Positions 24,934 through 63,584 of a stretch of DNA of 64,000 nucleotides are shown in pieces. Source of the DNA: an uncultured Clostridia bacterium (GTDB lineage Bacteria; Bacillota; Clostridia; Christensenellales; UBA1242); assembly GCA_944384395.1 (NCBI GenBank), contig CALWTD010000012.1, positions 57,596-121,595 of the forward strand, written 5' to 3'. The notes under the pieces were generated by a model. It did no database searches, was not told where the DNA came from, and saw only the letters and a program-made list of their open reading frames with translations. How positions within the stretch are numbered: position 1 is the first letter of the stretch; each line of letters begins with the position of its first letter. The translations under genes and the position numbers were made by a program.

Positions 24934-27234
24934 TTATCTAGCAAAAATTTTTGCCACAACAATAGTCATATCATCAAGTGCCGTTTGATGATTATTTTCA
25001 AGAGCTTTGTCCATAAGAATATCTGCAACTTCTTGTGGATTTAATGAGTTTATGTTGTTTACAAAATCTGTCATTTCATCATCGCTTGCAAAACTATCTG
25101 TTACGCCATCAGTACAAATTACAATCATATCGCCACTGTGAAGCATTGTTGTTTTTATTGTTGGAGTGGCATTTGATATTATTCCAAGTGGCAGTGCATT
25201 ACATTCAACAACACTTATTGTGTCGCCGTGTTTTATAAATCCGTTTGTGGCGCCAAGTTTAACAAAATCGGCACTGCCATTTTTTAAGTCTATTATTGCC
25301 ATATCTAAACATGAAAACACATCTGTGCTTCCAAGCGACAAAAATTTGTTTACACTTGACAAGATTATGTCGCTTTCAAAACCTGCTTTATAGAAATTTT
25401 CAACAAGTGATATCGCAGTTTGACTTGTTCGTTCTGCCTTTTCTCCACTGCCCATTCCGTCACAAAGTGCCATTAATATTTTTCCGTCTTCAATTCTTAT
25501 TATAGAGTAACTGTCTCCACTTTTTGTTGACGAAGATTTTGTATGTGCACTGGTTCCAAAAATAATATCATATTTTGGTGCAGTTTTTAAATTTAAAATT
25601 TGCCAACCTGCATGAGTGCTTGATTCGTCAGTTTCAACAAGCATTTTTGTTTTGCATACTTTTGAAACTATACTATTTATTTTGCTTTTTAAACTGTCTT
25701 CTTTTCTAACTTCCAAAACACACGAAACAACATTTTGGTTGTCGTGATATACGATAGCATCACTGCATATTATATCGTTGTATACAAGTTCGTCAATTAT
25801 TTCTTTTTCTAGTCCATTGTCAAACACAACATTTTTTCCAACATCTTTTGCAAGGTCTTTTAATACATTGCTAACTCCATACAACTGCTCACTTATTAAA
25901 ACTTTACTTGCATCTATGCTACCAAGTAGTGAAGCATAACTTTTGTATTGTTCTATTAAATCGTTTACTGTGTAAACAAGTTGATTAACCTTAAAACACC
26001 TTCCCGTAAGCACACTCGGAATGTCTAAAAGTGTTATTCGTCCCTTTTCAAACGCAACATTTGAAAGTGTTGAAAATATTGAATTTGTTTCATCTGCATA
26101 AATTTTATGACATCTATTTTTTTCTGGACACGAAGCACAGAGTTTGCTTTTAATTTCAGTCACCAAAAGCGATTTTAACTCGTTTTCACTTTCTTTGCCT
26201 TTTATCATACTTCTAAAAACTTTGTCCATTTCGCCAAAAACTTGCGACAATTTTAGCAGTCGTTTATGTATGTTATCTCGATTTCTGTTTATTATTGTTT
26301 CTAAACTTCTATTAACAAAACTTGAATTATAGTTTTCTGTAAGTGCCTGATAATATGATTGTGGAATACATAGTGCAATCAGTCCACTAATTATACATGG
26401 CAAAAAGGTTATAAATGATGTGGTATAATAAAAATCAAAATAATATACACACATAAGTTCGGTTACTATTAAACTTAAAATAGCAAAAATTCTGTGCCTA
26501 CCCCTAAAACACGAACACACAAGCCACCATATAATTATTGGTGCAACTAAATATGCGTTGTTGTCATAAAGAAGTGTTCCTGCCGAAAACACCATAGTAA
26601 GTAAGGCACTTTCTAGTATTGGCAAAACAAGAGTTGAAAAGATGACAACAAATGCTAAAAACAATTTTGCAAAATCAAAATCAAATAGTGTTATTGCTCT
26701 AAGTCCACAAGTTAAACTTGCAAAAAACGCACCAAGACATATTGTTTGAATAAGTGTAAATTTTCGTGTTATTCCCCTAACGATTAAACTTTCAAAAACT
26801 TTCATGCATGCAAACATATACAAAAGTCCAAACACAAGTTCAACGCATACTATCCACCAAACTGTTCCACTGTATATTTTTAAAAACACGCTCACTGCTT
26901 GACTAAGTAGTGCATACAAAAGCATAAGCATTGGTTTTATTGGTTTTTTAAGTTTAAGGTGCACACCATAAATAAGCATCATAACAAAACAAGTGGCAAT
27001 TGCCGAATATAAATCATATAAAACTAAATTGTTTAAATAACTTGATGCTATGTAGAGTGGCGACAAAATTAAAATGTTTTGATTGCACCAAATAAGAGCA
27101 AAATATATTCCAAACCCAAACGGACTAATAACTCCATTTATTTGTGCTTTTTGTAATAAATAAAAAACTATAAAAAATAAAACATATTTGCAAAATATAA
27201 ATAATTTGTTTTCTTGACTATAAACTTTTTCCAT
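24934..27234 (-). CDS. spoIIE: Stage II sporulation protein E (membrane PP2C phosphatase)
   Basis: About 10 N-terminal TM helices plus a C-terminal PP2C domain (GDSYSI...CDGMGSG...TDGVTD...DDMTIVV). Confidence 0.9.
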   Translation of the reverse strand: MEKVYSQENKLFIFCKYVLFFIVFYLLQKAQINGVISPFGFGIYFALIWCNQNILILSPLYIASSYLNNLVLYDLYSAIATCFVMMLIYGVHLKLKKPIKPMLMLLYALLSQAVSVFLKIYSGTVWWIVCVELVFGLLYMFACMKVFESLIVRGITRKFTLIQTICLGAFFASLTCGLRAITLFDFDFAKLFLAFVVIFSTLVLPILESALLTMVFSAGTLLYDNNAYLVAPIIIWWLVCSCFRGRHRIFAILSLIVTELMCVYYFDFYYTTSFITFLPCIISGLIALCIPQSYYQALTENYNSSFVNRSLETIINRNRDNIHKRLLKLSQVFGEMDKVFRSMIKGKESENELKSLLVTEIKSKLCASCPEKNRCHKIYADETNSIFSTLSNVAFEKGRITLLDIPSVLTGRCFKVNQLVYTVNDLIEQYKSYASLLGSIDASKVLISEQLYGVSNVLKDLAKDVGKNVVFDNGLEKEIIDELVYNDIICSDAIVYHDNQNVVSCVLEVRKEDSLKSKINSIVSKVCKTKMLVETDESSTHAGWQILNLKTAPKYDIIFGTSAHTKSSSTKSGDSYSIIRIEDGKILMALCDGMGSGEKAERTSQTAISLVENFYKAGFESDIILSSVNKFLSLGSTDVFSCLDMAIIDLKNGSADFVKLGATNGFIKHGDTISVVECNALPLGIISNATPTIKTTMLHSGDMIVICTDGVTDSFASDDEMTDFVNNINSLNPQEVADILMDKALENNHQTALDDMTIVVAKIFAR

Positions 27235-29212: not shown

Positions 29213-29256
29213 ATATCTAAATAAGGTGTAAATAAGTTATAAACAAAAATGTGAAA

Positions 29257-29277
29257 AAGTTATCCACATTTCCACAT
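29257..29277 (+). promoter_or_regulatory. DnaA-box doublet, copy 1 of a 21-bp repeat
   Basis: The repeat is aagTTATCCACATTTCCACAt. It holds a perfect TTATCCACA (29260-29268) abutted by ATTTCCACA (29268-29276). Confidence 0.7.
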
Positions 29278-29351
29278 TTGTATATTTATTCATTTTGGTC
29301 TTTATTTATAAATTTTTATCGTATTTTGGTTAAAAGTGGATAAAATTTAAC

Positions 29352-29372
29352 AAGTTATCCACATTTCCACAT
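29352..29372 (+). promoter_or_regulatory. DnaA-box doublet, copy 2 of the 21-bp repeat
   Basis: Identical 21-mer 95 bp from copy 1, with TTATCCACA at 29355-29363. Further one-mismatch boxes are AGTGGATAA (29335-29343) and TGTGCATAA (29432-29440). Confidence 0.7.
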
Positions 29373-29568
29373 ATTGTTATGTGTTTATAACTATTTTTGA
29401 TATGTTTTAGTATATTGATTTTTAAGGTTATTGTGCATAACTTTGTTGATACATTAACAACGACTTTTTTGTTGGACATGTTTTATATGTTCTTTTTTGT
29501 TGTTATGTTATATTTAGTATTTTTAAAATGTATAATCTATGCATAGATATTTGTTGAATTATGTTTTT

Positions 29569-48022: not shown

Positions 48023-48685
48023 TTATTGAAACAAATTATAACCCATTGTTTTTACAACATAAATAGCTCCTTCATTAAAAACATTTATAAGAGAAGACGA
48101 ATTAACTTGTTCATAAAGTATTTGTTCAAATCCTTCAAACTCCATTAAGGATATAATAACAAAACACATCACGCAAACAATCATAACGCCCTTTAAAAAT
48201 CCAAAACATAATCCACAAAAACGGTCAAATGAACCTAAAATAAAAAAGTTTTTTAAATATGTGGAAAGTTTTTTAGCAAACGCCTTTAACATTCCTTTAA
48301 TTATAATAGCAAGCACAACAAAAGATACTATATTGATAATAAAATGAGTTACTGTTTGATATAGTGTTTGTTCGTTTATATGCAAAAAAAATTTAATCAT
48401 AAGAAGTAGTTTGCTATCACTATTAACAAAATTGTTTAGTATTGTAATATCTTTAACCAATGAGCCAACTTTGCTATCTATTTTAAATAATAAATTTAAC
48501 AAGTCAACAAAATATGGTAATAATAAATAAGTAAAATAAATAGAAAGAACAAAACAAAGTATAGAAAATAAAGAAATAAGCATTCCTTTTTTAAAGCCAA
48601 TAGCAGAAAAGATACATAATAATGAAATGATTACTATATCAATTATCACTTCATAATTATTACATAAATTAATATTTTTATTCAT
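48023..48685 (-). CDS. CvpA-like membrane protein
   Basis: Four to five TM helices and a CvpA-like N-terminus (DIVIISLLCIFSAIGFKKGML). Confidence 0.4.
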   Translation of the reverse strand: MNKNINLCNNYEVIIDIVIISLLCIFSAIGFKKGMLISLFSILCFVLSIYFTYLLLPYFVDLLNLLFKIDSKVGSLVKDITILNNFVNSDSKLLLMIKFFLHINEQTLYQTVTHFIINIVSFVVLAIIIKGMLKAFAKKLSTYLKNFFILGSFDRFCGLCFGFLKGVMIVCVMCFVIISLMEFEGFEQILYEQVNSSSLINVFNEGAIYVVKTMGYNLFQ

Positions 48686-48997
48686 ATATCAAAAAAAATT
48701 TTCTTATAATATAAATACTATAAACTGTGTTTTTTGCTTAAAAATGGGTATTAAAAAATCTTAATTATAAAGCATTTTTATACACTTTTTTGAACACTTA
48801 CTTATTTGTACCAATTTTTTGCTCTTATAATCCATTTTTTTATTTTATATACAATTTTTTTGTTGTTCTTATAAAAAATTAAAATCAAATTTTATAATTA
48901 TAATATAAACATGGATATAACAAAAAAGTAAATTTTTAATTTTTTATTTAATAAGTAAATAATATATATGTTTGTTTAACATTTTATATTTTAAATT

Positions 48998-49571
48998 TGT
49001 TTCACATGAAACATTTTAAAACAATAAATATAAATATCAAAAAATTTTTAAAAATAAGAAAACTTTTTAAACACTATTTCAATTTTTACATTAAATAATT
49101 ATGATATTTTTTATATGCTTTGTTTTTTTTATGTTTCACGTGAAACAAAAACAAAAAAATTAGACAAAATATACTATACGCATAAAATTTTATTATAAAT
49201 AAAACGATTTTAAATTTATTATTTTTGCCAAAAATGTTTCATGTGAAACATTTTTGTGAAAGAAAATAAAAGAATATTTAAAACAACCACCTTTTATTTA
49301 CATAATATAATCTATATTAAATATTTAACCAAAAGACTATCATTTGCTATAAAGTTCTGAATATGTTTCACGTGAAACATAATTTAATTATTAAAAAGCT
49401 TTATATATTGTGCTTGTTAATATCTATATCAATCAATTCTATATTAAAACATACAAAAATGTTTCATGTGATACAATTTTAACTTTAAATCTCCTTTTTT
49501 GTTGTTTTGTTATATACTTATATGATTATAGAGAATATAATATGAAATATGTTTTTGTTTCACGTGAAACA
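48998..49571. repeat. Array of six parS (ParB-binding) 16-bp palindromes
   Basis: Three perfect TGTTTCACGTGAAACA sites at 49132-49147, 49364-49379 and 49556-49571. One-mismatch sites at 48998-49013 (CACATG) and 49235-49250 (CATGTG). Two-mismatch site at 49460-49475. Spacings are 134, 103, 129, 96 and 96 bp. Confidence 0.85.
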
Positions 49572-49583
49572 AATAAAATCTAG

Positions 49584-49701
49584 TTATACACAAAGTTATC
49601 CACATTTTTGTTTAAAAATGTGGATAACTAACTGTTTTATACCTATTTTTTGTGTTTTAGATTCTGTTTTTAATAAGTTTTTATCTTTTTATTGTGGATA
49701 A
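49584..49701. promoter_or_regulatory. DnaA-box cluster next to the parS array
   Basis: TTATACACA at 49584-49592 (one mismatch). Perfect TTATCCACA at 49596-49604 and TGTGGATAA at 49619-49627 form a 16-bp inverted repeat (AGTTATCCACATTTTT / AAAAATGTGGATAACT). Perfect TGTGGATAA at 49693-49701. Confidence 0.75.
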
Positions 49702-49750
49702 CTTTATTATAAAATAAAAAAAACATATCTTATTTGATATGTTTTATGTT

Positions 49751-50728
49751 TTATTGTACATGCTTTTTATTATATTCGCTTAAATCTTTTAATGTTAATG
49801 TTTTTGTTTTTAAAAGTTCAAGAAGTTCTGCAATTCTATCTAAATCATCTCTTGAATAATAATCTATATATATTCTACCTTTTCTATCGCTTCCAATTGC
49901 TGAAACTTTTGTTGCAAAAACTCTTTGCATTTCATTTATAAGTTCTTTTAGTTCTAAACTTTGCTCAGGTGGTGTGTTTTTTGTGCTTGCTTTTGGATTT
50001 AAATATTGTTTTACTAATTTTTCAAGTTCTCTTACTGTTATTTTGCCATCACACGCTGCCATTGCAAATTTGTATTGTGCTTTTGCATCATTAATAACAA
50101 CTAAACATCTTGCGTGTCCTGCTGTTAGTTTGTTTTGTTCTACAAGACTAATAACTTCTGGACATAAAGACAATAATCTTAATGTGTTTGCTATATTTGG
50201 TCTACTTATACCAATTCTATCAGCAACAGTTTCTTGTGTAAAATTATATTCTTCCATAAGTTGTTTTATTGCTCTGGCTGCTTCAATTGGATTTAAGTCT
50301 TCTCTTTGCAAGTTTTCAATTATCGAAATTTCTTTTATTTGTCTTTCTGTATAATTCTTTACAACACAAGGCACAGTATCAAGTCCTGCTATTTTACTTG
50401 CACGCCATCTTCTTTCTCCGGCAATAATCATGTATCCGTTTTCTTCTTTGTTTACAACAATAGGTTGTATTACGCCATGTGTTTTAATCGAAGTTGCTAA
50501 TTCATTTAATGCTTCTTCATTAAAGTTCTTTCTTGGTTGGTTAGGATTTGCATGTATAAGTTTTATATCTATTTCATTTACTCCACTTTCTTTTTTAGAT
50601 TTTATTATTTCATTTGATAATGCAGGGGAGTTGTTTTGTTCTTCTTTATTCAATCCTTCAACTTCTTCATCATATATTGATAACAATGCACCTAATCCTT
50701 TACCCAATCCCATTTTCTTTTGAACCAT
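49751..50728 (-). CDS. parB: Chromosome partitioning protein ParB/Spo0J
   Basis: QPRK, GERRWRA, and HTH motifs. Located downstream of parA. Confidence 0.95.
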   Translation of the reverse strand: MVQKKMGLGKGLGALLSIYDEEVEGLNKEEQNNSPALSNEIIKSKKESGVNEIDIKLIHANPNQPRKNFNEEALNELATSIKTHGVIQPIVVNKEENGYMIIAGERRWRASKIAGLDTVPCVVKNYTERQIKEISIIENLQREDLNPIEAARAIKQLMEEYNFTQETVADRIGISRPNIANTLRLLSLCPEVISLVEQNKLTAGHARCLVVINDAKAQYKFAMAACDGKITVRELEKLVKQYLNPKASTKNTPPEQSLELKELINEMQRVFATKVSAIGSDRKGRIYIDYYSRDDLDRIAELLELLKTKTLTLKDLSEYNKKHVQ

Positions 50729-50730
50729 TT

Positions 50731-51546
50731 TTATTCACCTCTCAACTTAAATTTTGTATTTTTAGTTATTTTATTATAACTAATTTTATTTCTATTCAAT
50801 ATTTCTTCTGCTAAACTTTGATACGCATTGGCACCTTTTGAAGATGTGTCATATAAAATAATAGGTAGTCCATGACTTGGTGCTTCTGCTAATCTTACAT
50901 TTCTTGGAATATATGTTTCATAAACCTTTGTATTAAAAAATTTTTTTACTTCTTCACTTACTTGTGCAACTAAATTTGAACGATTATCTTTCATAGTTAA
51001 AACAACACCTTCAATTTTTAGTTCAGGGTTTAAATGATGTATTATTAGTCTTATTGTATTCATTAATTGAGTAAGTCCTTCAAGTGCAAAAAACTCGCAT
51101 TGAATTGGAATTATAACAGAATCTGATGCAGTGAGAGCATTTACTGTTAAAAGACCGAGTGATGGTGGGCAATCTATAAAAATAAAGTCATATCTATCTT
51201 TTATTCTATTAAGTGCGTTTTTTACAACATGTTCTCTTGCGTTCATTTGAACCAAGTCAATTTCTGCGCCTGCCAAATCTACTGTTGATGGTACTATATC
51301 TAATCCATATAGTCGAGTGGGTAAAATAACTTCATCAATAATTACTTCTTTATCTATAACATTATAAAGTGTTTTAAGGTCGTTATTTTTTTCTACACCA
51401 ACACCACTTGTTGCATTTCCTTGTGGGTCCATATCAATAATCAAAACCTTTTTACCCATAGCAGCAATATAAGCAGCCACATTTATGCAAGTTGTTGTTT
51501 TACCAACACCACCTTTTTGATTTGCAAATGCTATAATTTTTCCCAT
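50731..51546 (-). CDS. parA: Chromosome partitioning ATPase ParA/Soj
   Basis: Deviant Walker A (NQKGGVGKTT), with DMDPQGN and DCPPSLG motifs. Confidence 0.95.
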   Translation of the reverse strand: MGKIIAFANQKGGVGKTTTCINVAAYIAAMGKKVLIIDMDPQGNATSGVGVEKNNDLKTLYNVIDKEVIIDEVILPTRLYGLDIVPSTVDLAGAEIDLVQMNAREHVVKNALNRIKDRYDFIFIDCPPSLGLLTVNALTASDSVIIPIQCEFFALEGLTQLMNTIRLIIHHLNPELKIEGVVLTMKDNRSNLVAQVSEEVKKFFNTKVYETYIPRNVRLAEAPSHGLPIILYDTSSKGANAYQSLAEEILNRNKISYNKITKNTKFKLRGE

Positions 51547-51731: not shown

Positions 51732-52898
51732 ATGATTATCAAAAAAGAAGGTAATACAGTAGGTTTAATAAGACAAATTGAAAATATTTTAAATACTGAA
51801 AAATATAGAGATTTATCTACTAAGCAAAAAATTTGTATGTTGTATTTAAAATATACAATGCTGTGTTTAGATATAAATGAAATAAATTTAGAATATTTAA
51901 ACGAAACATCTCTAACATACGGAAGTTATGTAAAGGATCAAAATCTAATCTATATAAATCCAAAGGAAATAAAAAACAAAAGTTCGATAAGTGCACTTAC
52001 AACTATATCTCATGAATTAAGACATTGTTTTCAAAATAAACAAATGAAGCCTTTTAAAGAATTTAATGTTTTTAAAAAAAGTTCTTATCCTATTGAAGTT
52101 TTTGATTCTTATTTAAATTTTATTTTAAGCGTTAAAAAAATCGATTTGTATAAATATTATTACTCATCTAGATTAGAAAAAGATGCCCGAGATTATTCAA
52201 TAAAAAGTGTTAAATTTTTATACAATGTTATGTTTTTAGAATGCAAAAAAGGAACATTTGCTCATAAATGGGCGAAAAAAGAATTAAAAAGAATACAAAA
52301 ATTAGAGAAAAAAGAAGAAAAGAAATATAATAAATCTTATGACCATGTTGAAAAAACTTATAGACAATTAACACATATTGTAAAACATCAAATTTTAAGT
52401 TTGATAAAAATAAATTCATATAATATTACAGAAAAGAAAAACTCAGACTTAAATAATTATATTAAAAAACATTTTGAAAATTATTTATATGTTTATTGTG
52501 ATGATGAAATTACAAACAAAATAATTGAATATTGCATACAAGTAGATGATGTTGAAACATTATTTATGTGTTTAAATCATCCTTACACAAGAATTACTGA
52601 AAAACAATTTAAAGAGTGTGTAAATTACTTGCAAAAGAACTCGTTTTTTCATGAACAAGATATAGTATCATTTCTTGTAAATTGGAAAAAAGAATTTTTG
52701 GCAGAATACTTTAATAAAAATGATGAAATGATAGACAATTCTATTTCTTTGGATAATATTTTTGAAAACTGCAAAAAATTTGTAAAAAAGAAAAATTTAA
52801 AACATTTTAAAAATTTACAAATTAAAAATACACACACAAATAATAATATAAATAAAAATGTAAATATAAATAAAAAACAAAAATATTGTGAAAAATAA
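51732..52898 (+). CDS. Hypothetical protein with an HExxH zinc-metallopeptidase-like motif
   Basis: TTISHELRHCFQNK, with a possible third ligand about 55 aa later (RLEKDARD). The remainder is Lys/Asn-rich and helical. SD is AAGGA. Confidence 0.4.
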   Translation: MIIKKEGNTVGLIRQIENILNTEKYRDLSTKQKICMLYLKYTMLCLDINEINLEYLNETSLTYGSYVKDQNLIYINPKEIKNKSSISALTTISHELRHCFQNKQMKPFKEFNVFKKSSYPIEVFDSYLNFILSVKKIDLYKYYYSSRLEKDARDYSIKSVKFLYNVMFLECKKGTFAHKWAKKELKRIQKLEKKEEKKYNKSYDHVEKTYRQLTHIVKHQILSLIKINSYNITEKKNSDLNNYIKKHFENYLYVYCDDEITNKIIEYCIQVDDVETLFMCLNHPYTRITEKQFKECVNYLQKNSFFHEQDIVSFLVNWKKEFLAEYFNKNDEMIDNSISLDNIFENCKKFVKKKNLKHFKNLQIKNTHTNNNINKNVNINKKQKYCEK

Positions 52899-52983: not shown

Positions 52984-53685
52984 TTATATTATTGGTTTAC
53001 TTTTTGCCAAATTTTTTCCTCTTGGATATGTTAGGGGAGTGTGCTTATCTTTTTTTATTATTATGTTAACTCTTATACTGTCCATTTCTTTTACAAAAAC
53101 ACTTTGCAAATTCATAACTTTTCCGCCTAATATATTTAGTGCATTTTTTGCTTCATTTAATTCTTCGTCTGCTTTTAAACTTTTATAAGCAATCATAATA
53201 CCATTTAGTTTTACAAGTGGCAAACAATATTCGAGTAGTGTGTTTAATTTTGCAACAGCTCTTGCTACGCATACATCAAAATGTTCTCTTTTTAATTTTG
53301 CGTAATCTTCTGCTCTTGTGTGTATTACTTCAATATTTTTTAAATTCAATTTTTGAATTACACTTTTTAAAAATTCAACACGCTTATTTAAGCTGTCTAT
53401 CATTTTTATTTTTATATCTGGTCTTAAAATTTTTAAAGGAATTGAAGGAAATCCTGCTCCGGCACCAACATCAACTAAAGTTGAATTTTCTTTTATTGTG
53501 TTTATTGGCAAAACACTGTCTAATATGTTTTTTACTGCAAAATCTTTTTCATCGGTTATGTTTGTTAAATTCATGACCTGATTTTTTTCTATAACCATTT
53601 GATAAAAGATTTCTAATTGATTAAGTTTTTCTTCATCAAATTCTATATTATATTTAATAAATAAATTTTTTAACAGTTCTTTCAT
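52984..53685 (-). CDS. rsmG: 16S rRNA (guanine527-N7)-methyltransferase RsmG
   Basis: DVGAGAGFPSIPLKI SAM motif. Located downstream of mnmG. Confidence 0.9.
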   Translation of the reverse strand: MKELLKNLFIKYNIEFDEEKLNQLEIFYQMVIEKNQVMNLTNITDEKDFAVKNILDSVLPINTIKENSTLVDVGAGAGFPSIPLKILRPDIKIKMIDSLNKRVEFLKSVIQKLNLKNIEVIHTRAEDYAKLKREHFDVCVARAVAKLNTLLEYCLPLVKLNGIMIAYKSLKADEELNEAKNALNILGGKVMNLQSVFVKEMDSIRVNIIIKKDKHTPLTYPRGKNLAKSKPII

Positions 53686-53695
53686 ATTTTTCCTT

Positions 53696-55567
53696 TTATT
53701 TTTGCATAGATTTTACATACATAATTAAAATTGTTACATCAGCAGGGGAAACTCCTGAAATCCTTGATGCTTGTCCTATGCTTATAGGTTTTATTTTATC
53801 AAGTTTTTGTTGGGCTTCTATTCGTAATCCTTTTATTTTTTTATAGTCAAAATCTTTTGGAATCAATAGATTTTCTTGTTCTTTAAACTTTTTAATGTCT
53901 TCTTTTTCTTGATTTATATAACCTTCAAATTTGACTTCTGTGTTTACATATTCTAAAACTCTTTTATCAAACTCATCAAATAAATGATATTTTTCGTTAA
54001 CTTTAAAAATGTCTATATTGCTTCTTTTAATCATTTTATAAACTGTTTGCGATGTGGTTGGTACTGACTCATTATACATTTTATAAAAATCTTCAAGTTC
54101 TTGTCCTATTTTTATTTTTGTATTTAAAAGTTCATAAACTTTTTTTATTTGTTTTTGTTTTTCTTGGAATGTTTCCCATCTTTCTTTTGTTACAAGACCT
54201 ATTTCTTTTCCAATTTTTGTAAGTCTAACATCTGCATTATCTTGACGCAAGTATAATCTATATTCTGCTCGTGAAGTCATCATTCTATAAGGTTCATTTG
54301 TACCTTTTGTTACTAGGTCGTCAATTAAAACGCCAATATATGCTTCATCTCTACCAAGAATTAAAGGTTCTTTATTTTCTATATATCTGCTTGCATTTAT
54401 TCCTGCAATTAAGCCTTGTGCAGCCGCTTCTTCGTAGCCACTTGTGCCGTTTACTTGTCCAGCAAAAAATAACCCATTTATTGTTTTATATTCCAAACTT
54501 GGTTTTAAATTTGTGCTATCAATACAATCATATTCAATTGCATATGCATCTCTCATAATTTCTGCATGTTCTAAACCTTCAATAGTTTTATACATTTGTT
54601 TTTGGACATCGACAGGTAGGGAAGTTGATACACCTTGCACATAAATTTCGTTTGTATAAAGTCCTTCTGGCTCCAAAAAAATTTGATGTCTTTCTTTGTC
54701 GCTAAACCTTACAATTTTATCTTCAATACTTGGGCAATATCTTGGACCAACACCTTTAATGACACCACTAAACATTGGTGCTCTAGATAAGTTTGCTCTT
54801 ATTATGTCATGAGTTTTTTGATTTGTGTATGTTAAATAACAAACAGAAACATTTTTTGGTTGTTTTTTTGTTAAAAAACTAAAACTTTGTATTCCTTCAT
54901 CACCATATTGAGTTACTAGTTTTGAAAAATCAACAGTTCTTCCATTCATTCTTGCAGGAGTACCTGTTTTAAAACGCCTAATTTGTATATTGTTGTCTAA
55001 TAAACTTTGAGTTAAATTTTCTGCTCTTAAAAATCCATTTGGACCACTTTCTTTGCTATATTCTCCAATTATTATTTTGCTTTTTAAGTATACACCTGTG
55101 CAAATAACAATGGTTTTACAATAATATTTTTCACCTTGTGCAGTTTCTACGCCTTTAACTGTGTTATTTTCAATTATTAAATTTTTTGCTTCGGCTTGTT
55201 TTATATATATATTTTCATTTTCTTCAAGCGTTCGTTTCATGTTATTGTGATAAAGTTGTTTATCAACTTGTGCTCTAAGTGAATACACTGCTGGACCTTT
55301 ACCTAAATTAAGCATGCGTATTTGAATGGCACTTTTATCTGTATTTATACCCATTTCTCCACCAAGAGCATCAATCTCACAAACAAGATGACCTTTTGCA
55401 GTTCCACCAATACTTGGATTGCAAGGCAAAAATCCAATTGCATCAAGATTTATTGTTAGAAGTAGAGTTTTTTTATTTAAACGTGCCAGACTTAATGCAG
55501 ATTCGCAACCTGCATGACCAGCACCAATAACTATTGCGTCAAATATATAATCGTTGTTTTCTTTCAT
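53696..55567 (-). CDS. mnmG: tRNA uridine 5-carboxymethylaminomethyl modification enzyme MnmG
   Basis: FAD motif ([11 protein letters not shown]) and full-length GidA colinearity. Confidence 0.95.
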
Positions 55568-55623: not shown

Positions 55624-56955
55624 TTATTTTCCTAAGCAAAACTTTGAAAATATTCCATCTATAATACTTTCAGTTTCACTTTCTCCTGTTATTTTACCAA
55701 GCGTTGACCACACTTTTTTTGTTTGTTGGTCAACAATATCAGCAGTTTGAGTTTGCACTGCAATAAGTGCATTATCAATATCAATTAATGTTTGTTTTAA
55801 AATTTCTGTATGCCTTTGATTTGTTATATAAATTTGAGAAAAGTCTATTTTGTTTAATTTTGCAAGTTCAATTATTTTTTCTTTTATTTCATCAATATTT
55901 TTATTTTCACTTGCACTAACTAAAATCGCATTATCCATATTTAAAACAATCTTTTTATCAGTTTTATTTAAAACAAAAATAACATTTTTGTTTTTTGTTA
56001 AATTTATAAGTTTTTTATCTTCTTCATCTAGATTTTCACTTGCATCTAAAACGCACAAAACAATGTCGCTTTGCTCTATACATTTTTTACTTCTTTCTAT
56101 TCCAATTTTTTCTACAATATCTTCACTTTCTCGTATTCCTGCTGTGTCTATAAAATTTATTTTTATTCCTTTATATAGTATTGTCTCTTTTAAAACATCT
56201 CTTGTTGTACCTTTTACATCTGTTACAATGGCTCTATCTTCGCCAATTAAGCAGTTGAGTAAACTCGACTTTCCAACGTTTGGTTTTCCAATTATTGCAA
56301 CATTTATACCAAAACGAATTTTTTCTCCTGTTGTTTGTGTTTTTACCAATTTTGAAATTTCTTTTTTTGTAGATAACAACACATCTTTTATATTGTTTAT
56401 AGAAGCATATTCATCATCATGCTCTGGATAATCTATTGAAACTTCCAAATCAACTAAACAATCTTTTATTTTGTCTTGTAGTTGTTTTATTTGATTTGTA
56501 AATTTACCACTAAGCAAAAGGCTTGTTGCTTTTATTTCTGCATCACTTGTTGCGTTTATCATATCAATCATTGATTCGGCATCGTTTAGTGTCATTTTTC
56601 CATTTATAAAAGCACGCTTAGAAAACTCGCCATTTTCGGCAAGTGAGCAACCGTTATTTAAAAGTGTTTCTAGTACTTTTGTTGCTAAATATTCACCACC
56701 ATGAATTTGAAATTCAATAACATCTTCGCCTGTAAAAGAGTAGGGTTCTTTAAAATATACCATCATACACTTTTCTGTTGCTTGTTCTAGTTGAAATTTA
56801 CCCAAGTATAATTTTCGTGGTTCTATGTTTTCTTTGTTTAAATTTTTTGCATGAAAAAGACTAAAAGCAATTTCTTTTGCTTTATCTCCACTCATTCTTA
56901 CTATTGCAATTCCACCACTTCCAAGTGGTGTTGAAATTTGTGCTATTGTTTTCAT
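55624..56955 (-). CDS. mnmE: tRNA modification GTPase MnmE
   Basis: TIAQISTPLGSGGIAIVRMSG N-terminus, G-domain (GKPNVGKSS, DTAGIR, NKTD), and C-terminal FCLGK. Start moved to 56955. Confidence 0.95.
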   Translation of the reverse strand: MKTIAQISTPLGSGGIAIVRMSGDKAKEIAFSLFHAKNLNKENIEPRKLYLGKFQLEQATEKCMMVYFKEPYSFTGEDVIEFQIHGGEYLATKVLETLLNNGCSLAENGEFSKRAFINGKMTLNDAESMIDMINATSDAEIKATSLLLSGKFTNQIKQLQDKIKDCLVDLEVSIDYPEHDDEYASINNIKDVLLSTKKEISKLVKTQTTGEKIRFGINVAIIGKPNVGKSSLLNCLIGEDRAIVTDVKGTTRDVLKETILYKGIKINFIDTAGIRESEDIVEKIGIERSKKCIEQSDIVLCVLDASENLDEEDKKLINLTKNKNVIFVLNKTDKKIVLNMDNAILVSASENKNIDEIKEKIIELAKLNKIDFSQIYITNQRHTEILKQTLIDIDNALIAVQTQTADIVDQQTKKVWSTLGKITGESETESIIDGIFSKFCLGK

Positions 56956-56962
56956 GAGTACA

Positions 56963-56971
56963 ATTATACCA
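56963..56971 (-). promoter_or_regulatory. Extended -10 lying 7 nt upstream of the mnmE ATG
   Basis: The minus strand reads TGgTATAAT, then tgtactc, then ATG. No SD. Confidence 0.5.
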
Positions 56972-57005
56972 TTATGTAAATAAAATAACAATTCTATTTT
57001 TTATA

Positions 57006-57035
57006 AATAAATAAAAACTCTTTAAAAGAGTTTTT
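57006..57035 (-). terminator. Terminator of the HipA-like gene (overlaps its stop codon)
   Basis: Palindrome AAAAACTCTT-taa-AAGAGTTTTT. Confidence 0.5.
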
Positions 57036-58020
57036 ATAATATATTTTCACTTTCTTTAATATCCAATTTTGTAATATTTTTTGACACTTCTTTAAACGTA
57101 TCTATATTTATATTAATTATTTTTTCTATATAATTTTTATAATTATCTTCAATCTTTATGCCATACTTTTTTAACTCATTTATAGCATTGTCTATGTTTA
57201 TGTTATCTATAATATTAAAAAATATATCTTTCATGGATTTATTCTTTTTAGCCAAAATAAGAATATCTTTTAAATTATCCAAATAATCAAATTTTTTAAG
57301 TGTACCAAACTTTTCTATTATTAAATATTTTCCTTCCACAGCATATTGCCTTAAAATTTCATCTTTTGTCATATTATAAGTTTTTGTATCAGGATAAAAA
57401 AATTCTCCAAAGAAAGCAAATTCATTGTCTATAAGTGGGGCAACTTTTAAATTCGCTTGTTTATCTACTATAAAGTGAATATTGTACGTATTTCTATCAG
57501 TTTGCATTGTTAAAGCATCAAATACTATCATTTTATATAAATCTAAAATAATCTGCTTTTTGTTTACATTATAGCCTGCATTTTTGTAATATTCTAGTGC
57601 TTCAGCAATATTAAAAAGGGTAGGTTCAGTATAAAATCCTTTTTTTAATACCTGTTCACAATTTATAAGTTTTTCATCTTTATTTAAAATGTTATAAGAA
57701 ATTAGTCCTTTATCATTTTTTATGTGAGCAGGTGTGTATTTCGCGCAATTTATTCCAACTTGTTTAGAAAGAACGCAACACAAAAGTTCATTTATCATCC
57801 TATATTTTTTTATATCTTCTCTATAAGTGTTGTAAGTTTTGAAAAGTGCTTTGCCTTCAGGTAATTTAAACCATACATTTCCATACTCGGAAGTTGAAAC
57901 ACCAACATTAAAACTTTTTGTTGACCTTTTAGTTGTTTTTATATTTTTTAAATCAATATCTAAAAAACAAAAATTATATATTTTCTCTTGATTTTTTAAT
58001 ATTATTTTATTGTTTTCCAT
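57034..58020 (-). CDS. HipA-like kinase-fold protein (orphan, no adjacent HipB)
   Basis: MIVFDALTMQTDRNTYNIHFIV...LKVAPLIDNEF matches the HipA_C catalytic-loop and Mg-loop pattern (F..LiGn.D.H..N.s.. / l.P.yD). Confidence 0.5.
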   Translation of the reverse strand: MENNKIILKNQEKIYNFCFLDIDLKNIKTTKRSTKSFNVGVSTSEYGNVWFKLPEGKALFKTYNTYREDIKKYRMINELLCCVLSKQVGINCAKYTPAHIKNDKGLISYNILNKDEKLINCEQVLKKGFYTEPTLFNIAEALEYYKNAGYNVNKKQIILDLYKMIVFDALTMQTDRNTYNIHFIVDKQANLKVAPLIDNEFAFFGEFFYPDTKTYNMTKDEILRQYAVEGKYLIIEKFGTLKKFDYLDNLKDILILAKKNKSMKDIFFNIIDNINIDNAINELKKYGIKIEDNYKNYIEKIININIDTFKEVSKNITKLDIKESENIL

Positions 58021-58097: not shown

Positions 58098-58859
58098 TTA
58101 ACCTTTTGGTTTTATTATTAAAAATCTATGTGGTTCTTCACCTTTTGAAAGTGTTTCTACTGTGTTGCTTTCTGCAAGGGCAGTGTGAATTATTCTTCTT
58201 TCATTTGCTGTCATTGGTTCAAGTTTTACGCTTGAATGTGTGCGTTCAACTTTTTTTGCCATTCTTTGAGCAAGAGCAATTAACGAACTTTCTCGTCTTG
58301 CTCTATAATTATCACAATCAACTCTTATCTTTTTTGCGTGTCTATTGTTTTTGCTAACAACAACACTTGTTAGATATTGAAGAGCATTTAATCCTTCTCC
58401 ACGATATCCAATAATATCACTATAACCAACAATATTTGCAAAAATTTCGTCGCCTTTTTCATTAAGTTCAACACTTCCTGTTAAACTTGTTTTATTTAAA
58501 AGACCTTGAATAAATTTTTGTGCTTTTTCTATATCTTTTTCTTGTTTATCTATTTTTTTGTTTGAAGAAATAACTTCAACTTCTTCGTCTTTATCATCTT
58601 CAACACTAATTGTTTTTTGTTCTAAATCTTGTTTTGTTGGAATAATTGATGATACTTCTTCGTTGTTTTTTAATTGTTCTCTTTTTTCATATTTTTCAAT
58701 TTCGTCAGGGGATATAGAAACTAAAACTTTTGCTTTTTTAAATAATCCACCTTCTTCAAGTATTTTTATATCAACATCTTCTCTAACTGCTTTTAATTCA
58801 AATAAAGCATTTGATATTGCTTGTTCAATATTTTTTCCTGTTGCTTCTACACTTAACAT
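58098..58859 (-). CDS. jag: RNA-binding protein Jag/KhpB (Jag_N, KH, R3H)
   Basis: R3H motif (ERRIIHTALAE), KH domain, and position after yidC. Confidence 0.9.
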   Translation of the reverse strand: MLSVEATGKNIEQAISNALFELKAVREDVDIKILEEGGLFKKAKVLVSISPDEIEKYEKREQLKNNEEVSSIIPTKQDLEQKTISVEDDKDEEVEVISSNKKIDKQEKDIEKAQKFIQGLLNKTSLTGSVELNEKGDEIFANIVGYSDIIGYRGEGLNALQYLTSVVVSKNNRHAKKIRVDCDNYRARRESSLIALAQRMAKKVERTHSSVKLEPMTANERRIIHTALAESNTVETLSKGEEPHRFLIIKPKG

Positions 58860-58872
58860 AAATTCCTCCTTG

Positions 58873-59958
58873 TTAAATTCTTTTTAATCTATCGGTAGGT
58901 ATTTTTTTGTTTTCTTTTCTTTTATCAACAACATCTCCAATCTTGTTTATTAGTGGCATCGTTACCAAACTTACAAGTTGTCCTGTTATCATGTATAGTG
59001 TGAACATTGTTGTGTACATAAATGCAAACAAAAGCATAATTAGTGGCATAACTATTAACATAACTAAACCACTTGATTGTTTTGTTCCTTCTTTTTTCAT
59101 TTTTCGCATCATAAACCATTGATTTAAAAATGATACGCCAGCACATAGTATAACCAATATAAAATAACCATTTACTCTGCCTTGTGTTGTTTTTAGTGGC
59201 TCCATAATCTGATTGTAAACATTTTTGTATTCTTCATTTTCTCTATCTTCTTGACTTAATCTTGCAACACTTGCGTATTCTTCATATGATGGTATTGAAT
59301 TTTTTAATGGACTATCTGCGAGCCATATATTATCTATCCATAAAAAACCTTGTTTTGTTTCTTTATAAACTTTTTCAACATTTTGATTTGCTATTAAAAT
59401 AACTTCATTCTTTTCGGTTTCATCTTGAATATCATTTATTTTTTCTATAATTGGAACGCATATTTCATAAACTGTTTTTCCATCTTGTGATAAAGAAATA
59501 CCATTTTGTTGCGCATACTCGGTTACATATGCAATTTGAAGTTTTTCATATTGATCTGCAATTTTATATGAAGCCATTGTGTTCATACCGTTAAATAGAG
59601 TTATGAATATTGTAAGTGTTAGTGCCATGCTAATTAACATGATTGAACATGAACCAATTGGATTTATTCTTTCTTTTTGATAAAGTTCACCAAGTTTTTG
59701 GTTTCTCATTTTTGCATCATTTGCGTATTTTTTATTTATTGCTTCCATTTGTGGTTGTATGCGTTTTTGCATGTCTGCCATTTTTTTGTTTGTTCTACGA
59801 TTAAAATAATCAATAGGCGACATTACAAGTTTTATACAAATTGTAAGTATTATAATTGAAAGAGCAAATGAACCGAAAGCGCCTTCAAATGCAATTATAA
59901 TACTTTCCCACATTCCTTTTGGAACTTGAACTAATAAATTTGATATTATATAATCCAT
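58873..59958 (-). CDS. yidC: Membrane protein insertase YidC (long form, 361 aa)
   Basis: Conserved core (KLVMSPIDYFNRRTNKKMADMQKRIQPQMEAINKKY) and C-terminal TM helices with a basic tail. Confidence 0.9.
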   Translation of the reverse strand: MDYIISNLLVQVPKGMWESIIIAFEGAFGSFALSIIILTICIKLVMSPIDYFNRRTNKKMADMQKRIQPQMEAINKKYANDAKMRNQKLGELYQKERINPIGSCSIMLISMALTLTIFITLFNGMNTMASYKIADQYEKLQIAYVTEYAQQNGISLSQDGKTVYEICVPIIEKINDIQDETEKNEVILIANQNVEKVYKETKQGFLWIDNIWLADSPLKNSIPSYEEYASVARLSQEDRENEEYKNVYNQIMEPLKTTQGRVNGYFILVILCAGVSFLNQWFMMRKMKKEGTKQSSGLVMLIVMPLIMLLFAFMYTTMFTLYMITGQLVSLVTMPLINKIGDVVDKRKENKKIPTDRLKRI

Positions 59959-60218
59959 TTACTGTCTCCCTTAATATTTTGAGGTATTGGGTCAAATCCA
60001 CCTTTTGATAAAGGTGAACATTTTATAAGTCTTTTACAAGCCAGCATTGAGCCTTTAAATACACCAAATTCTTTTAAAGCCATAATTGCATAAGTTGAAC
60101 AAGTAGGGTAAAACCTACAAGTGTGTTTTAAAAAAGGTGAAATACACCACTTATATAAATAGATACATAACACCATAATTAAATAAATAGGAAAAAAAAT
60201 TACTTTAAATATTTTCAT
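59946..60218 (-). CDS. yidD: Membrane protein insertion efficiency factor YidD
   Basis: CRFYPTCSTYA motif. The start is ATG 60218 or GTG 60230. Confidence 0.9.
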   Translation of the reverse strand: MKIFKVIFFPIYLIMVLCIYLYKWCISPFLKHTCRFYPTCSTYAIMALKEFGVFKGSMLACKRLIKCSPLSKGGFDPIPQNIKGDSKWII

Positions 60219-60552
60219 TGTAGAGTCCACATTTTTTTAAAATGTCTATCATATTTTGTTTTATTTCTAAAAAAGACATATTTTCTATGCCTTCTCTTGC
60301 AATAAATATATAGTTATATTTTTTGTTTATGTTGTTAGATAAACTTAAAAAACATTCCCTAAGACGCCTTTTAGTTTTGTTTCTAACTACACTTTTTCCT
60401 ATTTTTTTAGATACAGAAAAACCAACTTTGTAAGTTTTAAATTTTGTTTTAATGTACACTAAATTTAATTTGTTTAAAACTTTTGAATCACCATGTTTAT
60501 AAATGTATTTAAAATGCTTGTTTTTTCTAAGACGGTTTTCTTTTTTTAGCAT
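60205..60552 (-). CDS. rnpA: Ribonuclease P protein component
   Basis: MLKKENRLRKNKHFKYIY... and the RNR motif (KKIGKSVVRNKTKRRLRE). Start moved to 60552. Confidence 0.9.
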   Translation of the reverse strand: MLKKENRLRKNKHFKYIYKHGDSKVLNKLNLVYIKTKFKTYKVGFSVSKKIGKSVVRNKTKRRLRECFLSLSNNINKKYNYIFIAREGIENMSFLEIKQNMIDILKKCGLYNENI

Positions 60553-60568
60553 TTTTTCACCTTGAGTA

Positions 60569-60709
60569 TTATGCTGATAAAACTTTACGGCCTCTATTTC
60601 TACGGCGTTTAAGTACATTTCTTCCAGATTTTGTTCTCATTCTTTCTCTAAAACCATGAACTTTTTGTCTTCTTCTTTTTTTAGGTTGATAAGTTCTTTT
60701 CATAGCCAT
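60569..60709 (-). CDS. rpmH: 50S ribosomal protein L34
   Basis: The minus strand translates to [52 protein letters not shown] lies 8 nt upstream. Not in the ORF track because it is under 60 aa. Confidence 0.95.
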
Positions 60710-60909: not shown

Positions 60910-62022
60910 TTAGTTTATCATTCTTACTGGAAGAATTAAATATAAAAACTCTTCTTTTTCGCCGTCTATTGGAGTAATTATACATGGATTTGTTGGCGAT
61001 GAAAAACTTATTTTTACAAATTCGTTATCAACTGCTCTAAATGCCTCTAAAAAGTACCTTGCATTAAATGCAATAACCAAATCTCTACCGTTTAAAACTA
61101 TATTTATTTTTTCTTTTATATTTCCAATTTCACTGTTTGAAGTAAGATATAAAGTATCTTCTTTTATATCAAATTTAACAAGGTTATTTTGACCTATTTT
61201 TGAAAGAAGTGATGCTCTTTCAAGTGCGTCTTCTAGTTGAGATTTATTGACTGTTATAACGGTTTCTTGTGATGATGATGATATTATTTGATTATAATTT
61301 AAAAAATCACCTTCAAGAAGTCTTGTTATTATCTTTGTATCTCCAAGGTCAACCATTAAAAAGTTCTTTTGAACATATATATTTATTATATCTTCACTAT
61401 CATCTATAAGTTTAGCAATTTCTCTTAAACTCTTGTCTGGAACAATGCAATTTGTTTCTAAATTTGAAAAAGACAAAACTGCTCTTGCTAAACTAAGTCT
61501 ATAGCCATCACTTGTAACTGCCTTTATTATGTCTTTTCCTATCTCTAATAAACAACCTTTAAGAATTGGTCTTGAATCATCAATTGCAACAGAAAATATT
61601 GCTCTATTTATAAGATTTTTAAAATTAACTTTTTTAATACCAAAATAATCGGTTGTGTTTAAAGTATTAAAACTTGGATATTCATCATTTGCAAAACATT
61701 GAATAAAACCTTCACTGTCTATATACTTTATATTTAAACCATTTTTGTCATTTAGTGTTAGTTCAATTTTGTCGTTTGTTAGTTTTTTAACAAATTCACT
61801 AAAAAATCTGCCAGGAACAACACATGAACCTTCTTCTTTTACTTGTGCACGAATTTTTTTCTCTATTGATAGTTCAAGGTCTGTTGCAAGAAGTGTTAGT
61901 TCGTTTTCTTCTGCTGTGAGTTTAATTCCTTCTAAAATAGGATTTGTTGTTTTTACTGCAATTGCTTTACTCACTTTAAGCACTGCATCTGATAGGTCTA
62001 AACCATCACAAATAATTTGCAT
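60910..62022 (-). CDS. dnaN: DNA polymerase III beta sliding clamp
   Basis: 370 aa with three-domain clamp colinearity, located immediately after dnaA. Confidence 0.95.
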   Translation of the reverse strand: MQIICDGLDLSDAVLKVSKAIAVKTTNPILEGIKLTAEENELTLLATDLELSIEKKIRAQVKEEGSCVVPGRFFSEFVKKLTNDKIELTLNDKNGLNIKYIDSEGFIQCFANDEYPSFNTLNTTDYFGIKKVNFKNLINRAIFSVAIDDSRPILKGCLLEIGKDIIKAVTSDGYRLSLARAVLSFSNLETNCIVPDKSLREIAKLIDDSEDIINIYVQKNFLMVDLGDTKIITRLLEGDFLNYNQIISSSSQETVITVNKSQLEDALERASLLSKIGQNNLVKFDIKEDTLYLTSNSEIGNIKEKINIVLNGRDLVIAFNARYFLEAFRAVDNEFVKISFSSPTNPCIITPIDGEKEEFLYLILPVRMIN

Positions 62023-62216: not shown

Positions 62217-63584
62217 TTAACATTTTTCGCCAATTTGTTTTTTTAAGTCGTTTATAATTGTTTTTGTTTTGTGGTCTCTTTTTAGTAGTTCACTAATTTT
62301 GTCGCGAGAGTGGATTATTGTTGTGTGATCTCTACCACCAAACAATCTTCCAATTGAGATTAGTGGAATATCCATCATATCGCTTATTAGGTATATTGCA
62401 ATCATTCTTGGTTCAACAATTTCTTTTGATTTTTTCTTGCCTGTTATTTCATTGTATTCAATACCATAATAATCGCATACGGTTTGAATTATTGTTTGAG
62501 GAGTTAGTTTTTCTTTTTGAACATCAAGTTGCTCTTTAAATGCTTCTCTTGCTTCTTCAATGCTTGCTGATTTTTTACCAAGAAGTGTTGCAAAGAAATA
62601 AACTTTACTTAAAAGTCCTTCCATTTCTCTTATGTTTGTGTCAACTTTTTCTGCAATAAATTCAATTACATCGTCATCTATAAAATATCTTTCAAGTTGT
62701 GCTTTTTTTCTAAGTATTGCAACTCTTGTTTCAAAATCGGGTGCTTGAATATCTTGAATAAGCCCACTAGAAAATCTTGAACGAAGTCTGTCTTCAAGCG
62801 TTTCAATTTCTTTTGGTGGTCGGTCTGATGAAATTATAATTTGTTTATTTTGTTGATATAGATCATTAAATGTATGGAAAAATTCTTCTTGTGTGCTTGT
62901 TCTCTTTGAAATAAATTGAATATCATCAACCATTAAAACATCAAGATTTCTATATTTTTCTCTAAATTCAGCAGTGCCCTTAACAGTGCCTTTTTCTTTG
63001 TTTGTGCCAAGTGATTCAATATAGTCATTTGTAAATTTTTCGCAAGTTACATATTGAATCTTAAGTTTTGGATTATTTTGTTTTAAATAGTTTCCAATTG
63101 CGTGTAGTAGGTGAGTTTTTCCAAGTCCAACACCACCATAAATAAAAAGAGGATTAAGTTTTTGACCAGGATTTTCGGCAACTGCTCTTGCAGCTGCATA
63201 ACAAAATTGATTGCTTTTTCCAACGATAAAATTATCAAATGTGTATTTACTGTTAAACATACATTTTTCTTCGGCAAAGTTATCATTAACAAGTGCTTGA
63301 TTTTCATTAGGTTTGTTTTTTTGTAAATATTCTTCTTTCTCGTTTGGGTCTAAAATTTCATACTCTGTGCCATTTCCAAACACGCTTTCTATACATTCGG
63401 TAAGTTCTTTAGAATGATTTTTTAAAAGTTGTTTTTTTGCTGTTTGAGAATTTGCAGATAAAATAAGTTTATCTCTAAAATCTAAAGGAATTAAAGGTTC
63501 TATCCAAAGTTCATACGAAACAATACTAACCATGCTTTCAATTTTAGAGAGAACTTTTTCCCACATTTGTTTTAATTCTTGCAT
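62217..63584 (-). CDS. dnaA: Chromosomal replication initiator protein DnaA
   Basis: Walker A (GGVGLGKTHL), box VII, and the C-terminal DNA-binding helix (GGRDHTTIIHSRDKI). Confidence 0.97.
   Translation of the reverse strand: MQELKQMWEKVLSKIESMVSIVSYELWIEPLIPLDFRDKLILSANSQTAKKQLLKNHSKELTECIESVFGNGTEYEILDPNEKEEYLQKNKPNENQALVNDNFAEEKCMFNSKYTFDNFIVGKSNQFCYAAARAVAENPGQKLNPLFIYGGVGLGKTHLLHAIGNYLKQNNPKLKIQYVTCEKFTNDYIESLGTNKEKGTVKGTAEFREKYRNLDVLMVDDIQFISKRTSTQEEFFHTFNDLYQQNKQIIISSDRPPKEIETLEDRLRSRFSSGLIQDIQAPDFETRVAILRKKAQLERYFIDDDVIEFIAEKVDTNIREMEGLLSKVYFFATLLGKKSASIEEAREAFKEQLDVQKEKLTPQTIIQTVCDYYGIEYNEITGKKKSKEIVEPRMIAIYLISDMMDIPLISIGRLFGGRDHTTIIHSRDKISELLKRDHKTKTIINDLKKQIGEKC

Follow-up and report, generated by a model that had tools for sequence, protein, structure and literature searches.

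A six-site parS array behind parB as the very probable chromosomal centromere of an uncultured gut Clostridia bacterium

The centromere sopC of the F plasmid is composed of homogeneous tandem 43-bp units and has its own type of ParB. In Bacillus, one of the parS sites is found inside spo0J, and none of the six DnaA-box clusters of this organism is known to abut a parS site. Most species possess more than one parS site near oriC (PMC7022226), and in Myxococcus xanthus 24 of them are assembled beside parAB, with ori about 30 kb away (Harms et al. 2013, PMC3778016). Likewise, the five strongest parS sites of Caulobacter crescentus lie in a 5-kb region about 8 kb away from ori (Tran et al. 2018, PMC5815017). 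These tight clusters on the parAB side, together with those we retrieved from metagenomes, speak against the assumption of a first-pass annotation of the DNA studied here that chromosomal parS sites are normally dispersed singly. In Pseudomonas aeruginosa a single parS site can suffice (PMC4368675). In Bacillus subtilis, oriC-proximal DnaA-box clusters act with Spo0J/Soj on the control of initiation (Okumura et al. 2012, PMC3245932), and for Caulobacter, binding of DnaA to DnaA boxes in the parS region is described by Mera et al. (2014), as relayed in PMC6399470.

Here, we describe a compact parS array in a 64-kb stretch of DNA from an uncultured Clostridia bacterium, the whole of which is termed the window throughout. 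The genes and signals from dnaA to the far side of the array are the following:

62217-63584, minus strand: dnaA
62040-62090, plus strand: probable oriC unwinding core in the dnaA-dnaN spacer, an AT-rich tract followed by TAGTAGTATTATTAGTAGTAG (DnaA-trios) abutting the DnaA-box-like TGTGGAAAT
60910-62022, minus strand: dnaN
60205-60618, minus strand: rnpA
58873-59958, minus strand: yidC
58098-58859, minus strand: jag
57034-58020, minus strand: unknown ORF
55624-56991, minus strand: mnmE
53696-55567, minus strand: mnmG
52984-53685, minus strand: rsmG
51732-52898, plus strand: ORF of 388 aa without family assignment, between rsmG and parA and on the strand opposite to both
50731-51546, minus strand: parA (soj), 271 aa, ParA/MinD-type ATPase
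49751-50728, minus strand: parB (spo0J), 325 aa, TIGR00180 at 191.8 bits versus a cut-off of 58
49716-49745, minus strand: intrinsic terminator closing the parAB operon, with eight consecutive U behind a 10-bp stem (z = -4.3)
48686-49750, no strand: spacer between parB and the CvpA-family gene
48731-48830, minus strand: conserved block (near clade), about 100 nt long, in front of the CvpA-family gene
48023-48685, minus strand: gene for a CvpA/Colicin_V-family membrane protein, the downstream neighbour in the near clade only

In this arrangement dnaA-dnaN and the series rnpA-yidC-jag-mnmE-mnmG-rsmG-parA-parB share one strand, whereas the Bacillus arrangement is divergent. The place of the 388-aa ORF is held in Bacillus by noc, and no Noc paralogue was seen in the 64-kb window. 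The predicted ParB contains the amino-terminal LGKGLGALL motif for ParA interaction, the CTP-binding motif GERRWRA and a helix-turn-helix (HTH) domain. Its best matches in the PDB were 7BNK, 6SDK, 1VZ0 and 6T1F, all of them canonical chromosomal ParBs ranking above Noc, and from these sequence features we assign it as a canonical ParB. Elsewhere in the window, a SpoIIE homologue at 24934-27234 suggests that the lineage is spore-forming.

The spacer behind parB comprises 1,065 bp with 16.7 % GC and no ORF of at least 60 aa, the only two mechanical ORFs being 50 and 57 aa long, in line with the AT-rich, ORF-free spacer of about 1.06 kb between parB and a cvpA-like gene noted in the first pass. 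It holds the terminator, a hairpin equivalent to which was also found in relatives, a DnaA-box module, six parS sites and the conserved block upstream of cvpA. This block includes the near-palindrome ATGAGTAAnTACTCAT and is probably a promoter or operator region; neither a consensus RNA fold nor an Rfam match was obtained for it. For the spacer as a whole, the search for structured RNA gave no Rfam match even at E ≤ 1.

The dnaA-dnaN spacer displays a textbook array of DnaA-trios, whose consensus is 3'-GAT-5' (PMC6669920), beside a weak DnaA box, and is without perfect boxes. The trios, the box, the AT tract and the strand-bias switch are all present in this spacer and upstream of dnaA, with the gene orientation switching just upstream of dnaA at about 63.6 kb; the GC skew is negative over almost the entire window. 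The position of the DnaA-trio element places the oriC core about 12.5 kb from the array, as had been annotated before. A second cluster of DnaA boxes at 29256-29443, made of two copies of AAGTTATCCACATTTCCACAT and two boxes with one mismatch, sits in the 405 intergenic bp that separate a mini-RNase III-like gene from a Ca/Na antiporter gene, and no strand-bias switch was found at this cluster.

Searching both strands of the window with up to three mismatches yielded exactly six matches to TGTTTCACGTGAAACA, all within 48998-49571, and no match elsewhere in the 64 kb. The individual sites are:

48998-49013, no strand: parS site 1, TGTTTCACATGAAACA, CACATG centre, one mismatch (G to A in the central CpG, ACGT lost), farthest from parB
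49132-49147, no strand: parS site 2, perfect TGTTTCACGTGAAACA
49235-49250, no strand: parS site 3, TGTTTCATGTGAAACA, CATGTG centre, one mismatch (C to T in the central CpG)
49364-49379, no strand: parS site 4, perfect
49460-49475, no strand: parS site 5, TGTTTCATGTGATACA, two mismatches (transition in the central CpG and A13T)
49556-49571, no strand: parS site 6, perfect, nearest to parB and 12 bp from the last DnaA box

Three sites are thus perfect, two carry one mismatch and one carries two, with start-to-start distances of 134, 103, 129, 96 and 96 bp, so that the number, coordinates, mismatch classes and 96-134 bp distances of the original annotation were all reproduced. Dinucleotide-shuffled versions of the window contained 0.74 matches on average and none of 100 reached six, and not one of 3000 spacer shuffles produced any site with two or fewer mismatches. 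Site 5 is the weakest candidate of the six and, judged by its letters, may be weak or dead as a parS site.

The sites conform to the 16-bp palindrome TGTTNCACGTGAAACA of chromosomal parS, adjoin a parA-parB operon encoding ParA together with a cognate ParB that has the HTH and the GERRxRA CTP motif, and are separated from the DnaA-trio element by 12.5 kb and from the start of dnaA by 14 kb. The ParB paralogue Noc binds a different palindrome with the consensus ATTTCCCGGGAAAT. Allowing up to two mismatches we found no match to it in the 64-kb window, and we rejected an assignment as Noc-binding sites, as the sites fit parS and the protein fits ParB structures better than Noc structures. Based on the consensus match, the adjacent canonical parA-parB, the proximity to the origin, the exclusivity within the window and the conservation of multiple sites in relatives described below, the array very probably represents the chromosomal ParABS centromere of an uncultured, probably spore-forming gut Clostridia bacterium. 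The same lines of evidence bear out the earlier reading of the sites as a parS centromere.

Analysis with TRF and a repeat finder revealed that the sites have only the 16-mers in common, on the basis of which an origin of the array from a tandem repeat or duplicated unit was rejected. The flanks of the sites are unrelated, indicating that each 16-mer is maintained on its own. The resemblance of a tight tandem array to plasmid centromeres, proposed in the first pass, finds no counterpart in a tandem unit of the kind seen in F sopC. A plasmid-type tandem-repeat centromere was rejected likewise, there being no unit beyond the 16-mer and the context being dnaA, dnaN, rnpA, yidC, mnmE and mnmG.

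To compare the locus with its relatives, we used a ParB-anchored scan with one genome per GTDB species, which provided 80 loci with ParB identities of 53-94 %, all from uncultured gut or rumen Clostridia MAGs, some of them labelled Christensenella. Counting parS-like sites with up to two mismatches, 251 were located in the 157.5 kb spanning -30 to +2500 of the parB end, versus 2 in the remaining 1.05 Mb of flanks, and nearly all of the relatives' sites fall in the ORF-free spacer after parB. Between two and seven sites were present at every one of the 58 loci for which the downstream DNA reached 1.5 kb or more (two in 19 loci, three in 12, four in 10, five in 11, six in 2 and seven in 4), which together with the enrichment of 251 versus 2 sites indicates upkeep by selection. 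The six sites of the window are in the upper range of its own clade.

These comparisons also bear on the notion that the array arose as an artefact of assembly or belongs to the generic dispersed repeats of the MITE or REP type, for which the repetition of the 16-mer itself is the only argument. As the 16-bp cores are shared and the flanks unique, there is nothing to collapse or expand in assembly, and the same architecture recurs in dozens of independently assembled MAGs. A dispersed repeat is further contradicted by the lack of any copy outside the spacer in the window and by the mere two copies in 1.05 Mb of the relatives' flanks. Both scenarios, named in the first-pass annotation as what would overturn the centromere, therefore fail, leaving them a practically negligible probability.

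The inter-site DNA aligned poorly even at 94 % ParB identity, and global spacer alignments gave no one-to-one correspondence of sites. Since conservation could for this reason not be scored per site, the enrichment serves as the evidence, suggesting at the sequence level that individual sites turn over while multiplicity and location are kept. In the relatives, the starts of neighbouring sites are 28-661 bp apart (median 114 bp). The selected property is hence several sites right after parB, not a given number or spacing. The 179 parS-to-parS distances of the related loci (L001-L080) were weakly periodic at about 10.6 bp (R = 0.21, family-wise p ~0.02, shared ancestry uncorrected) with a non-zero mean phase of -0.27 turn, and for the five distances of the window itself no helical phasing was detected. 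Of the features whose conservation was raised as a question at the outset, the multi-site array and its position after parB are thus kept in relatives, whereas number and spacing are not; the idea that regular spacing builds a defined platform is not supported, as copy numbers of 2-7 and distances of 28-661 bp vary freely and the window distances are unphased.

The gene downstream of the array encodes CvpA in the near clade and a rubrerythrin-like protein in the far clade, indicating that the array travels with parB and not with its downstream neighbour. This finding speaks against a primarily transcriptional function, in which nucleated ParB would silence or regulate its neighbours, be it the parAB 3' end or cvpA, instead of acting in segregation. 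The sites do lie within the long region upstream of the CvpA-family gene, and ParB-dependent repression near parS clusters has been described for P. aeruginosa (reviewed in PMC7022226). However, the distance to the downstream start codon ranges from tens of bp to more than 2 kb among the loci, and the origin-proximal position and the adjacent parA fit segregation, so that we regard regulation as the main function as quite improbable.

Variation among the 251 sites clustered at the central CpG (G9A in 17 sites and C8T in 15) and at positions 5 and 12, where the published parS consensus is itself degenerate, the remaining 12 positions being conserved in at least 97 % of the sites. Flanking preferences were observed for A at -2 (78 %) and for A or T at -1 (96 %). 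In the window, each of the three imperfect sites has lost ACGT through a transition in its central CpG, and ACGT itself is rarer than expected (21 observed versus 85 expected, O/E 0.25), with 3 of the 21 copies residing within parS. Both observations, along with the extra mismatch in site 5, would be in line with a three-site centromere, in which the perfect sites alone are functional and the imperfect ones are relics decaying by CpG-to-TpG change or ACGT avoidance. Yet in L002, the locus with 94 % ParB identity, as well as in L023, L027 and L079, every copy (6, 3, 4 and 2 sites, respectively) has a single-transition centre while parAB and the array are kept, showing that ParB evidently tolerates such a centre. 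Double-mutated centres are very rare (1 of 251). We therefore consider it unlikely that half of the array consists of relics, and favour the full six-site centromere.

The scarcity of ACGT is even more pronounced in seven related loci, where the motif is wholly absent outside parS (2.5-15.6 copies expected). In some of these ACGT-free loci parS retains ACGT, and in others every parS is without it. Across all loci, ACGT depletion and loss of the parS centre were not significantly correlated (Spearman rho 0.17, p = 0.18). As a coarse contrast, centre-mutated sites occurred in 4 of 7 ACGT-free loci versus 10 of 60 others (Fisher p = 0.03), an association that is suggestive only. Altogether, these data suggest that the centromere core is in conflict with m5C deamination or with the avoidance of restriction sites. 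In a rather doubtful reading, ACGT avoidance, which is probably driven by restriction-modification, would collide with the parS core, and some species would resolve this by converting every copy to the CACATG centre. The loci touched by the central-CpG/ACGT observation are L002, L023, L027, L050, L079, L011, L046 and L075. Other 4-bp palindromes are scarce in the window as well (GGCC, O/E 0.15; GATC, 0.19; AGCT, 0.31; TCGA, 0.36), consistent with multiple restriction-modification pressures.

The spacer contains a further element that the first-pass annotation had passed over, namely a cluster of DnaA boxes directly abutting the array:

49582-49703, no strand: four-box DnaA-box module between the parB terminator and parS site 6
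49584-49592: DnaA box TTATaCACA, one mismatch
49596-49604: DnaA box TTATCCACA, perfect
49619-49627 and 49693-49701: DnaA boxes TGTGGATAA, perfect

A perfect inverted repeat of 16 bp, AGTTATCCACA..TGTGGATAACT, is made up by the two boxes in the middle, and the module at 49584-49701 is the strongest DnaA-box cluster in the window. With three perfect boxes and one single-mismatch box at a distance from the unwinding element, it qualifies as a DnaA-box cluster outside oriC, which is defined by several consensus boxes within about 200 bp. Following the reading direction of parB, the layout comprises the terminator, a box, about 70 bp, a box, 13-14 bp, two inverted boxes and the first parS, the latter following the last box after 5-90 bp, in most cases 5-20 bp. 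The window and 15 of 16 near-clade loci (ParB 78-94 % identical) have this order, orientation and box spacing in common. In the near clade, the first 300 bp behind parB had a density of 11.6 boxes per kb, compared with 0.42 per kb elsewhere. For the far clade no DnaA-box enrichment was detected after parB (0.18 versus 0.47 per kb elsewhere).

Three perfect and one near-perfect box within 120 bp, forming the window's strongest cluster in a spacer of 16.7 % GC, could be taken as a sign that the spacer is the origin, or one part of a split origin, with parS as an accessory. No DnaA-trios were found beside the boxes of the spacer, however, arguing that the module is not an unwinding origin; trio array, box and AT tract sit together in the dnaA-dnaN spacer instead. 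The switch in gene orientation and in GC skew is located at about 63.6 kb and not at the spacer, and the parS arrays of the far clade are devoid of any DnaA boxes. We rejected the spacer as oriC on the grounds of the missing trios and the missing orientation and skew switch, and consider any role as an origin part very improbable.

A roadblock or gate function of the module is conceivable from its position, since DNA-bound proteins can block the sliding of ParB-CTP on one side (PMC7053999). Should the module be a hard-wired coupler of replication and segregation in this Firmicute lineage, which we put forward as a tentative and rather doubtful proposal, DnaA bound to it might act as a one-sided roadblock or gate that keeps ParB-CTP clamps from sliding back into parAB. 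In another version of this proposal, the ParB complex might control the access of DnaA to a titration site that would be duplicated minutes after initiation.

For the centromere itself, we envisage that the HTH domains of ParB dimers would recognize each 16-bp palindrome, and that the dimers would bind CTP, close as clamps and slide onto the flanking DNA. Several loading sites within about 0.6 kb would be expected to raise the loading rate and to provide redundancy, so that the array may withstand the loss of individual sites, also where the ACGT core erodes. In this way a single large partition complex of ParB would form at a distance of about 12.5 kb from oriC, to be segregated by ParA. By analogy to Bacillus, this complex probably also loads SMC condensin, an assignment purely by analogy as no SMC/ScpAB was seen in the 64-kb window.

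To place the array among other parS clusters, we scanned metagenomes for two parS sites 31-61 bp apart, obtaining at least 120 loci with 26-74 % GC. A ParB homologue was present at 42 of these at least 120 loci listed, with the cluster usually just upstream of parA. Among the matches listed, one locus of 35 % GC carries 15 sites in about 1 kb (L144:1044-2027), with no ParB homologue in the 14 kb covered for this locus, and another carries 7 sites in about 0.3 kb (L184:761-1038). Further, far denser arrays among the matches listed are L159:446-1027 and L173:3977-4327. Tight parS clusters are thus widespread, and the array of the window is ordinary in kind. As dense clusters beside parAB are already documented and common in metagenomes, the general picture of chromosome segregation remains unchanged, and only the conserved DnaA-box module and the effect of ACGT avoidance on the parS core are potentially new. 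The locus nevertheless provides a clean, well-delimited predicted centromere for an uncultured gut Clostridia lineage, and throughout the clade the predicted centromere is compact, contains multiple sites and stays with the 3' end of parB. The spacer could be used as a marker of the origin region in MAGs and as a substrate for in-vitro studies of ParB-CTP loading on natural multi-site DNA.

Among the described systems, the array shares with Myxococcus a chromosomal, origin-proximal and dense group of parS sites adjoining parAB and a canonical ParB, the M. xanthus ParB structure 7BNK being the best PDB match of the window ParB. The Myxococcus cluster is larger and located upstream of parA, whereas the window array consists of six sites in 0.57 kb downstream of parB in a very AT-rich Firmicute. 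With B. subtilis, the locus has in common the 16-bp consensus, Soj/Spo0J-type proteins and DnaA-box clusters outside oriC, although the Bacillus parS sites are dispersed, the four strongest being 5-39 kb apart (PMC5815017). Several parS sites close to oriC, acting redundantly, are also found as parS1-4 in P. aeruginosa, but there they are spread over kilobases and a single one is sufficient (PMC4368675). Plasmid centromeres such as F sopC resemble the array in having many ParB-type sites within a few hundred bp of non-coding DNA, from which it differs by the lack of a repeat unit beyond the 16-mer, the irregular spacing, the chromosomal context and the chromosomal parS consensus.

As in Caulobacter, the parS sites are clustered near parAB and ori, while the Caulobacter sites are mostly intragenic and extend over kilobases and those of the window are all intergenic and about 100 bp apart. 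The DnaA sites at the Caulobacter centromere (reviewed in PMC6399470) constitute the closest precedent for the DnaA-box module of the window, which differs from them as a discrete four-box module abutting the first parS in a different phylum. A coupling of replication and segregation through this module, if true, would parallel the DnaA-parS link of Caulobacter, but with a discrete and recognizable cis-module.
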